A stretch of 8,528 nt of DNA from Candidatus Helarchaeota ASGARD archaeon Hel_GB_B (GCA_005191425.1 SUPR01000123.1:1-8528), one strand, 5' to 3'. Counted from the first letter of the stretch, positions 1 to 900 are shown. A program made the numbers and translations. The notes: generated from the sequence alone by a model not told the origin.

Positions 1-900
1 TTTTTAGGCTTATGAGGTTCCTTTTCTTTGACTTCAGATTCTTCTTTAAAGGGAACTTTATTTTTTAAACATTTGAAAATTTCCTTTTTAGAGAGTTCTT
101 CAACACCCTTACCATTTATTGACCTAATTATTGAATCGATTTTAATCAACTGTTTAATTTCTTTTAGAATTAATTCGCCGCCCCTGTCATCATCGAAAAA
201 AACAGTGACCTTTTTTCCCTTTGCTATATCAACTATACTTTTAGGTATATTAGTACCTTCTACAGCTATAGTATTAGTAATACCGCATCGAAGTAAATTC
301 AAGACATCAGCGCGACCTTCTACAATAATGATCTCATCACTATTTTCAATGTCAGGCCCAGCTGGCAGTTTATCAGGGCCGTATTTTAATATTTCACCGG
401 ATTTTATCTCATGCAAAACTCTATTAGAAATTTCTTGACTTTCAGGTGTAACATCGGCGTCCCAATGTTTTAAGATGTCCGCTGCCCGTTGTACAATTTT
501 TCTTCTTTTTGTTTCCCTGATATCTTCAATCTGTTTCAAAGATATCCTAGCAATACATGGTCCAACCCTGTCTACCGTTTCTAATGCCGATGCAAGTATG
601 GAAGTTTCTATCCTATTTAAGCTTGATGGAATTATAATTTGACCAACGGATTTTCCATTACTTGAATCAATATTTACTTGAATTCTTCCTATGCGTCCCG
701 TTTTTTGTAATTCTCTTAAGTCTAATTCTTCTCCTAATAATCCTTCAGTCTGCCCAAATAATGCACCTACTACATCAGGCCTATATAGACCTAGTTAAGA
801 AATTCAAGATAACTAGGTTTTCTACGATGCCGTCTACTTCTATTTGGGCAGTTATAATATATTTAGTTGTGCTATAATCTTCATAATTTTTATTAGTCAA
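1..900 (-). CDS. dnaG: Archaeal DnaG (TOPRIM primase-like protein, exosome-associated), split by an intron: exon 1 = 900..820, exon 2 = 782..<1; 3' end lies outside the window
   Basis: Manual translation. Exon 1 (TTG start at 900) gives MTNKNYEDYSTTKYIITAQIEVDGIVE. Exon 2 gives [36 protein letters not shown]...PSSLNRIETSILASALETVDRVGPC...IIIVEGRADVLNLLRCG...VEGT...FFDDDRGGELILKE, with no stop down to position 3. These are the hallmark N-terminal and TOPRIM (EG...DxD) motifs of archaeal DnaG. An AGGTGA Shine-Dalgarno lies 6 nt upstream of the TTG. Confidence 0.95.
783..819 (-). other. 37-nt BHB-type (tRNA-endonuclease-type) intron in dnaG mRNA
   Basis: Intron RNA is AACCUAGUUAUCUUGAAUUUCUUAACUAGGUCUAUAU. 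It shows a 9-bp intron stem ACCUAGUUA/UAACUAGGU, a 4-bp central helix GUAG/CUAU and 3-nt bulges AA^A and AU^A. Removal joins GAA|AGG, giving V-E-R-P-D in frame. Confidence 0.88.

Follow-up and report, generated by a model that had tools for sequence, protein, structure and literature searches.

A probable bulge-helix-bulge intron within the coding sequence of dnaG in a Helarchaeales archaeon

Archaeal bulge-helix-bulge (BHB) motifs are cut 3′ of the second base in each 3-nt bulge, a rule which we compared with the logic of the tRNA 37/38 intron. As of 2020, reported BHB introns beyond those of tRNA and rRNA were limited to one in crenarchaeal cbf5 and a 5′-UTR case in Haloferax (PMC7714728). 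The cbf5 intron is a short BHB element within coding sequence (Watanabe et al. 2002; Yokobori et al. 2009, PMC2738675), and the Haloferax volcanii intron, HVO_1309, sits in a 5′ UTR (PMC7714728). In tRNA genes, archaeal BHB introns can be non-canonical or multiple, and heavy interruption of tRNA genes is known from some Asgard lineages (PMC11291895; bioRxiv 10.64898/2026.10.13.758758).

Here we describe a 37-nt insert in dnaG of an Asgard archaeon which has the form of a BHB intron and which, if removed, would restore the reading frame. In full-text literature searches, no BHB intron turned up that had been reported from dnaG or from a protein gene of any Asgard archaeon. The initial annotation of this DNA had proposed that the case was new, and the searchable literature, which reports only cbf5 and the Haloferax 5′UTR case, agrees.

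The interrupted dnaG gene and its fold

The window, i.e., the whole stretch of DNA analysed (8,528 nt; C29:1-8528), belongs to a metagenome-assembled genome (MAG) of 3.54 Mb in 182 contigs that is 93.7% complete. The nearest named DnaG homologues carry the label Candidatus Helarchaeota, with identity up to 88%, which fits the earlier impression of an Asgard-like genome. The features of dnaG are as follows, with a caret marking each predicted cut.

907..912, minus strand: Shine-Dalgarno-like AGGTGA, 6 nt 5′ of the dnaG TTG start
820..900, minus strand: dnaG exon 1, TTG plus 26 codons (27 in total), last letters ...TTKYIITAQIEVDGIVE
783..819, minus strand: predicted BHB intron, 37 nt (1 mod 3), predicted cuts 820^819 and 783^782
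826..827, minus strand: outer helix h, 5′ strand (exon 1), pairs with 781-780 (C826-G781, U827-G780)
822..825, minus strand: central helix H, 5′ strand (exon 1 codons GUA GA), 4 bp, pairs with 788-785 (G825-U785, U824-A786, A823-U787, G822-C788)
819..821, minus strand: 5′ bulge AA^A, 3 nt, predicted cut after A820
810..818, minus strand: inner helix h′, 5′ strand, 9 bp, pairs with 797-789
798..809, minus strand: terminal loop, 12 nt
789..797, minus strand: inner helix h′, 3′ strand
785..788, minus strand: central helix H, 3′ strand (intron)
782..784, minus strand: 3′ bulge AU^A, 3 nt, predicted cut after U783
780..781, minus strand: outer helix h, 3′ strand (exon 2, within the Arg codon AGG)
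1..782, minus strand: dnaG exon 2, AGG CCT GAT at its 5′ end, Toprim domain, partial (leaves the contig start)

Exon 1 ends with GGC ATC GTA GAA (..DGIVE) at position 820. Read on past this point, its frame gives NLVILNFLTRSI and then a TAG stop, and the exon 2 frame resumes at 782, one base out of the exon 1 frame. Exon 2 has a profile match to Toprim_4 (E = 1.6e-12); the 3′ part of the gene lies beyond the contig end, and we infer its intactness from relatives. AGGTGA followed after 6-8 nt by TTG is present in five of five intron-bearing relatives and also in L060, an intron-less one.

Other genes in the window include nop10, whose product is the partner of Cbf5, in region 1363-1817 (plus strand), 700 nt upstream of dnaG and on the opposite strand. 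The 5′ end of nop10, with its GTG start, shares 4 nt with the end of an 87-aa ORF that has a weak, zinc-ribbon-like Pfam match, and a Roadblock/LC7 gene comes next (1884-2267, minus strand).

Within the window, the insert and its flanks have the strict hBHBh′ form, with an h′ of 9 bp and an h of 2 bp (C-G and U-G). The exon-exon helix is the weak point, having two pairs only, one of them G-U. In silico excision of 819..783 gives GTA GAA^AGG CCT (V-E-R-P), which brings back both the frame and the conserved motif, and the junction predicted in this way has the same form as those of the intron-less genes L060, L064 and L003-L007. The initial annotation had described dnaG as broken after DGIVE by 37 frame-shifting nucleotides, had listed pairs, bulges, stem and loop, and had applied the cut rule unadjusted. 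Every coordinate of the break was reproduced, all of the structural elements exist in the sequence and in a separate BHB scan, and the V-E-R-P junction was recovered in frame in silico.

The unconstrained minimum-free-energy fold has a register one A off from the canonical one, with a 5-bp central helix, a bulge at 820-818, and a GGC/GCC outer helix. This one-A slip is possible because there are four consecutive A's. When the same cut rule is applied to the slipped register, 36 nt are taken out and the frame is not restored. The canonical 4-bp register alone yields the conserved protein. The stability of the fold is unremarkable (z = -1.45), and given this value and the slipped minimum-energy register, we therefore treated thermodynamics as neutral, not as evidence. 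The significance of the motif comes from geometry, frame and covariation, not from stability.

How often such a motif occurs by chance was measured by scanning the whole genome on both strands (7.06 million positions) with spacing fixed at 37 nt. Only seven positions combine all four central pairs with an inner helix of 9 bp or more and an outer helix of 2 bp or more (approximately 1e-6), and relaxing the inner helix to at least 5 bp raises the count to 342; the weaker, G001-grade version, named for a carrier of the same genus described below, has a frequency of approximately 5e-5. Just two cut pairs (i,j) are able to restore the protein. Since the motif is rare and so few cut pairs work, coincidence is not a viable explanation, and the view that agreement between structure and protein is hard to explain by chance has stood up.

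A blastn-short search of the genome found no other copies of the intron, only AT-rich chance words of up to 21 nt; a MITE-like repeated mobile element was rejected on this ground, the insert being single-copy genome-wide. The ribozyme core of group I and group II introns comprises hundreds of nucleotides. A self-splicing intron of either group was rejected, as the insert is 37 nt long and no Rfam family reaches its gathering score in the window, and ARAGORN and Rfam found no known RNA family there.

Carriers, intron-less alleles and covariation

The order Helarchaeales has seven species in our genome collection. One of these, G001 (same genus as the window), carries an insert of 37 nt at exactly the same site, 57% identical to the window's insert. 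Three more carriers, each with 31 nt at the same site, were found by fetching the contigs behind the closest database proteins: an NCBI Helarchaeota MAG (GCA_054383595.1), a Logan contig and an ENA contig. The other five species of the order (L003-L007) have an uninterrupted ...G[IV]VEKPD[IV]VGA..., and there are intron-less genes among the closest relatives, L060 and L064. For example, L060:579-602, from JGI metagenome 3300034152, encodes a protein 85% identical to the window's, and its junction reads GTGGAA^CGCCCG. A scan of metagenome contigs with exon 2 returned three loci only, none of them running across the site in a close relative, and a scan of genome contigs returned only G001 and two distant archaea.

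In a maximum-likelihood tree, the five carriers and L060 form a clade with 100/100 support, and L060 is nested within it. L060 therefore looks like a case of precise intron loss. On these sequences, the simplest history would be one gain at the base of one Helarchaeales clade, then drift of sequence and length (31 or 37 nt) with the fold kept, then one precise loss in one lineage.

We aligned the five carriers (alignment A1) and scored them against the window's structure. In A1, 92% of pair cells are paired, compared to 19-41% once the 3′ partners have been shifted by 1-3 columns. Changes on both sides are found at 6 of the 15 pairs, including 5 of the 9 inner-helix pairs, and the covariation score was reached by none of 500 shuffles, in a sample of five related sequences only. 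Both intron-less alleles and compensatory stem changes, which the initial annotation had raised, are thus present among relatives, the former in L060, L064 and the five other species of the order (all with the predicted junction) and the latter at six pairs across the five carriers.

Some of this covariation connects codons on the two sides of the intron. In the Ile codon upstream of the intron, base three covaries with base two of the Arg/Lys codon downstream (C-G, U-A, U-G). In A1 terms, outer pair 6-51 is CG, UA or UG in four of the five lineages, and pair 5-52 is UA or UG. In L061 the first outer pair is broken, which would make it a relaxed HBh′ form. The central helix has 95% of its cells paired over the five lineages, with all four pairs in four of them and three of four in one; at the edge of this helix, L063 has A opposite A. 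The 5′ bulge is an invariant AAA, the 3′ bulge is AU^A, AC^A or AA^A, and in the 31-nt introns the loop has 6 nt fewer. Inserts of equal length are 57-74% identical (ungapped), which is not above the 68-83% of the flanking exons.

Splicing machinery and other candidate inserts

The genome encodes the enzymes that would be needed. There are two EndA-family genes, with PF01974 matches on C36 (98.6 bits) and C98 (75.1 bits) and lengths of 192 and 198 aa, and one RtcB gene (PF01139 on C105, 568 bits). Asgard EndA is reported to be an (alpha-beta)2 heterotetramer with a loop that confers broad specificity (PMC5829648). ARAGORN, run with its intron search, recognised only 6 tRNA genes in 3.5 Mb, and the 783-nt intron assigned to one of these is implausible. 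So low a count suggests that the majority of tRNA genes carry introns in non-canonical positions, and it fits the heavy tRNA interruption known from some Asgard lineages.

A second protein gene of the same genome, rfcS (RFC small subunit), has a 27-nt BHB insert with an in-frame stop, located in the codons of Walker A (the P-loop).

C107:48342-48368 (L070:1143-1169), minus strand: rfcS insert, outer helix 3 bp, central helix 4 bp, inner helix 5 bp

Its removal gives ...LLLYGPPG^IGKTS.... The insert was accepted from a genome-wide census of ORF-joining BHB motifs, which was filtered from 22,075 raw hits to 2,233 and then to 91. Most of the 91 candidates resemble adjacent-gene junctions, and rfcS alone was accepted. 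The census is blind to dnaG, whose exon 1 is under the 50-codon threshold. The same noisy census contains three further elements with BHB geometry whose removal joins long open frames, at C75:3850-3877 (minus strand), C118:47917-47940 (plus strand) and C105:14773-14792 (plus strand), and these are indistinguishable from adjacent-gene junctions. The cbf5 gene of this genome is uninterrupted in its catalytic domain, with a full-length match to TruB_N in a 333-aa open frame free of stops.

We also surveyed dnaG across the Lokiarchaeia, using 161 genomes, 151 of which have a dnaG match, and reading approximately 50 loci. Two further insertion sites were found close to the one in the window, which we call "site 1" here.

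L008:1459-1523, L027:1468-1526, L039:214-275 and approximately 20 further loci: GQ-site inserts (alignment A2)
L038 (G149), L041 (G125), L042 (G095), L043 (G072): SDI-site inserts

The GQ site follows ...GAIFGQ, 33 nt downstream of site 1, and is occupied by a 30-43-nt insert in approximately 50 of the 151 genomes, mostly from one large family. Its 20 distinct sequences (A2) have 98% of cells paired, compared to at most 46% when slid, with a central helix of GGNC/G..U in which the intron and the last base of the Gly codon covary. The SDI site lies after ...EKSDI and before VGA, 11 nt downstream of site 1, and has 30-31-nt inserts in at least four genomes. Three of these inserts are in frame and contain stops; the SDI inserts are less clearly BHB-like, with a central helix of 3-4 bp and an outer helix of 1 bp.

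The inserts in sister families are relaxed BHB forms, i.e., they have a central and an inner helix and little or no outer helix. Elsewhere among the surveyed Lokiarchaeia dnaG is uninterrupted, including in single-contig genomes of 4.4 and 6.0 Mb. Among 188 genomes sampled from the phylum's other classes, no further site-1 cases were found. One apparent site-1 case in another family (G196) was rejected because its match is ended by a contig end. A locus from another Asgard class (L067) does have a dnaG insert after GQ. Three BHB-type insert positions fall within a 33-nt stretch of dnaG in different Lokiarchaeia lineages, and the GQ position is used in another class too. What is specific to the window is a new predicted site (E^R/K-P) confined to one Helarchaeales clade, the strict hBHBh′ form, and an apparent series of gain, drift and loss.

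Weighing the explanations and comparison with known systems

The 37 nt at 819..783 are very probably an archaeal BHB intron within the dnaG coding sequence, and from the sequence we predict EndA cleavage and RtcB ligation of the transcript. In the pre-mRNA, the exon codons GUA GA would pair with the 3′ end of the intron to make the 4-bp central helix, flanked by the two 3-nt bulges, the 9-bp intron hairpin and the short exon-exon helix. The splicing endonuclease, presumably built from the two EndA paralogs, would then cut 3′ of the second base of each bulge; having two paralogs is consistent with the broad-specificity heterotetramer reported for Asgard archaea. RtcB would ligate the exons as GUA GAA^AGG CCU, giving a full-length DnaG with its conserved N-terminus, and the intron would be released, probably as a small circle.

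A gene that is simply disrupted and never spliced, in which exon 1 would be dead and translation from an internal start would give a shorter DnaG, is how gene callers in effect treat the relatives: the public calls (L061:501-1607 = P0005, 368 aa; L062; L063) start at a TTG inside ...EGLLG, the deposited carrier proteins are without approximately 40 conserved N-terminal residues, and G001 has a GTG at exon 2 codon 4. This explanation is unlikely. The window's exon 2 has no in-frame start before codon 82, and where the first start falls is not conserved among carriers, so the first 15 codons of exon 2 can be translated only from exon 1 with the frame restored. Exon 1 differs from that of G001 at 2, 2 and 10 first, second and third codon positions, respectively, i.e., mostly at third positions, and differences between carriers in exon 2 are likewise mainly third-position. 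Judged by this pattern, exon 1 is under purifying selection, and together with those 15 codons of exon 2 it appears to be so in all five lineages, where the two encode the most conserved DnaG motif. Nor would a neutral scar retain a BHB fold via compensatory changes. An assembly artefact, or a decaying pseudogene with a working gene elsewhere, might be suspected in a 182-contig MAG with the gene at a contig end, and is the most improbable of the alternatives we considered. Four metagenome runs, each from a different study (hydrothermal vent and marine sediment; one may be the source of the assembly), gave contigs that cover 560-1060 and contain the insert without any indel, and an insert at this site is also present in four further assemblies of other origin. 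The sole difference within the element is at position 799, where the plus-strand G is A in three of the four runs; in the intron this turns a C of the terminal loop into U and leaves all pairs intact. A six-frame search of the 93.7%-complete genome found no second dnaG. The initial annotation had named missing bases in the raw DNA and an intact copy elsewhere as ways to be wrong, and on both counts the evidence favours its interpretation: the 37 nt are real DNA, and dnaG is single copy.

EndA might instead cut the BHB without the exons being rejoined, making the element a processing or turnover site that regulates dnaG mRNA. EndA does have substrates that are not introns, such as pre-rRNA and the Haloferax 5′UTR element (PMC7714728), yet we consider this very unlikely, as cutting without ligation leaves no translatable full-length dnaG in a genome with no second copy. 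Furthermore, both insert lengths, 31 and 37 nt, are 1 mod 3, and exact restoration of the frame is relevant only if the exons are joined. Translational recoding, by a frameshift within the 37 nt or by a hop as in phage T4 gene 60, would suit a short insert with a stable hairpin, which is what bypass elements look like. We judge it highly improbable: the take-off and landing codons do not match (GAA before the gap, TAT before AGG), and the length of the gap differs between lineages. A frameshift would add 10-12 unconserved residues to an invariant motif, and the read-through peptides are unrelated between lineages, two of them meeting a stop at the end of the insert. What is conserved is exactly an EndA substrate.

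A broader proposal, which we put forward tentatively and at somewhat less than even probability, is that the dnaG intron is not a one-off and that the tRNA-splicing machinery of intron-rich Asgard archaea may routinely serve protein-coding mRNAs. The inserts at the dnaG sites would then be a record of introns gained several times, drifting in sequence and being lost precisely, and rfcS would be at least one more essential gene of this genome split in this manner. Introns may be kept where codons for invariant residues make up the splice motif's exon half, and splicing could gate the production of the exosome subunit DnaG.

If the intron is real, dnaG would join cbf5, for more than 20 years the sole archaeal coding sequence reported with an endonuclease-spliced intron, and protein-gene introns handled by protein enzymes would no longer be a crenarchaeal curiosity. 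Its carriers belong to the archaea closest to eukaryotes, close relatives differ by gain and loss of the intron, and sister lineages have alternative sites, so dnaG would give a concrete system for how such introns arise, move and are lost. There is also a practical consequence: annotation pipelines shorten such genes, and this clade's public DnaG entries miss the invariant N-terminus.

Among described systems, the crenarchaeal cbf5 intron is the most similar. Both are short BHB elements within coding sequence, both have a frame which needs removal by the tRNA-splicing endonuclease and a ligase (a prediction in the case of dnaG), both are patchily distributed with gain and loss among close relatives, and both host genes act in RNA metabolism. 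However, dnaG encodes an exosome and primase protein, its carriers are Asgard (Helarchaeales) whereas those of cbf5 are Desulfurococcales and Sulfolobales, and splicing has been demonstrated in RNA for cbf5 and is predicted for dnaG. We considered placing the dnaG element in the cbf5-type intron family and rejected this, its host gene being dnaG, with a Toprim domain. The HVO_1309 intron shares an mRNA substrate outside tRNA and rRNA, and differs in that it lies in an untranslated leader, interrupts no frame, and has been confirmed in vivo and in vitro.

Archaeal tRNA BHB introns, which are dense in some Asgard lineages, have the same two 3-nt bulges set 4 bp apart, the same predicted enzymes and a similarly intron-rich genomic background. 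In dnaG, however, the host is an mRNA, so the cuts must keep the frame, and the exon half of the motif consists of codons of an invariant protein motif. A more distant analogue is HAC1/XBP1 mRNA splicing in eukaryotes, where IRE1 makes the cuts and, in animals, RtcB performs ligation. By analogy, a protein endonuclease there cuts two stem-loops, a tRNA-type ligase joins the ends, and the frame changes (PMC13149111), much as would happen in dnaG. The differences are that IRE1 is an endonuclease unrelated to EndA, that it recognises another motif, and that HAC1/XBP1 splicing is regulated by stress induction.
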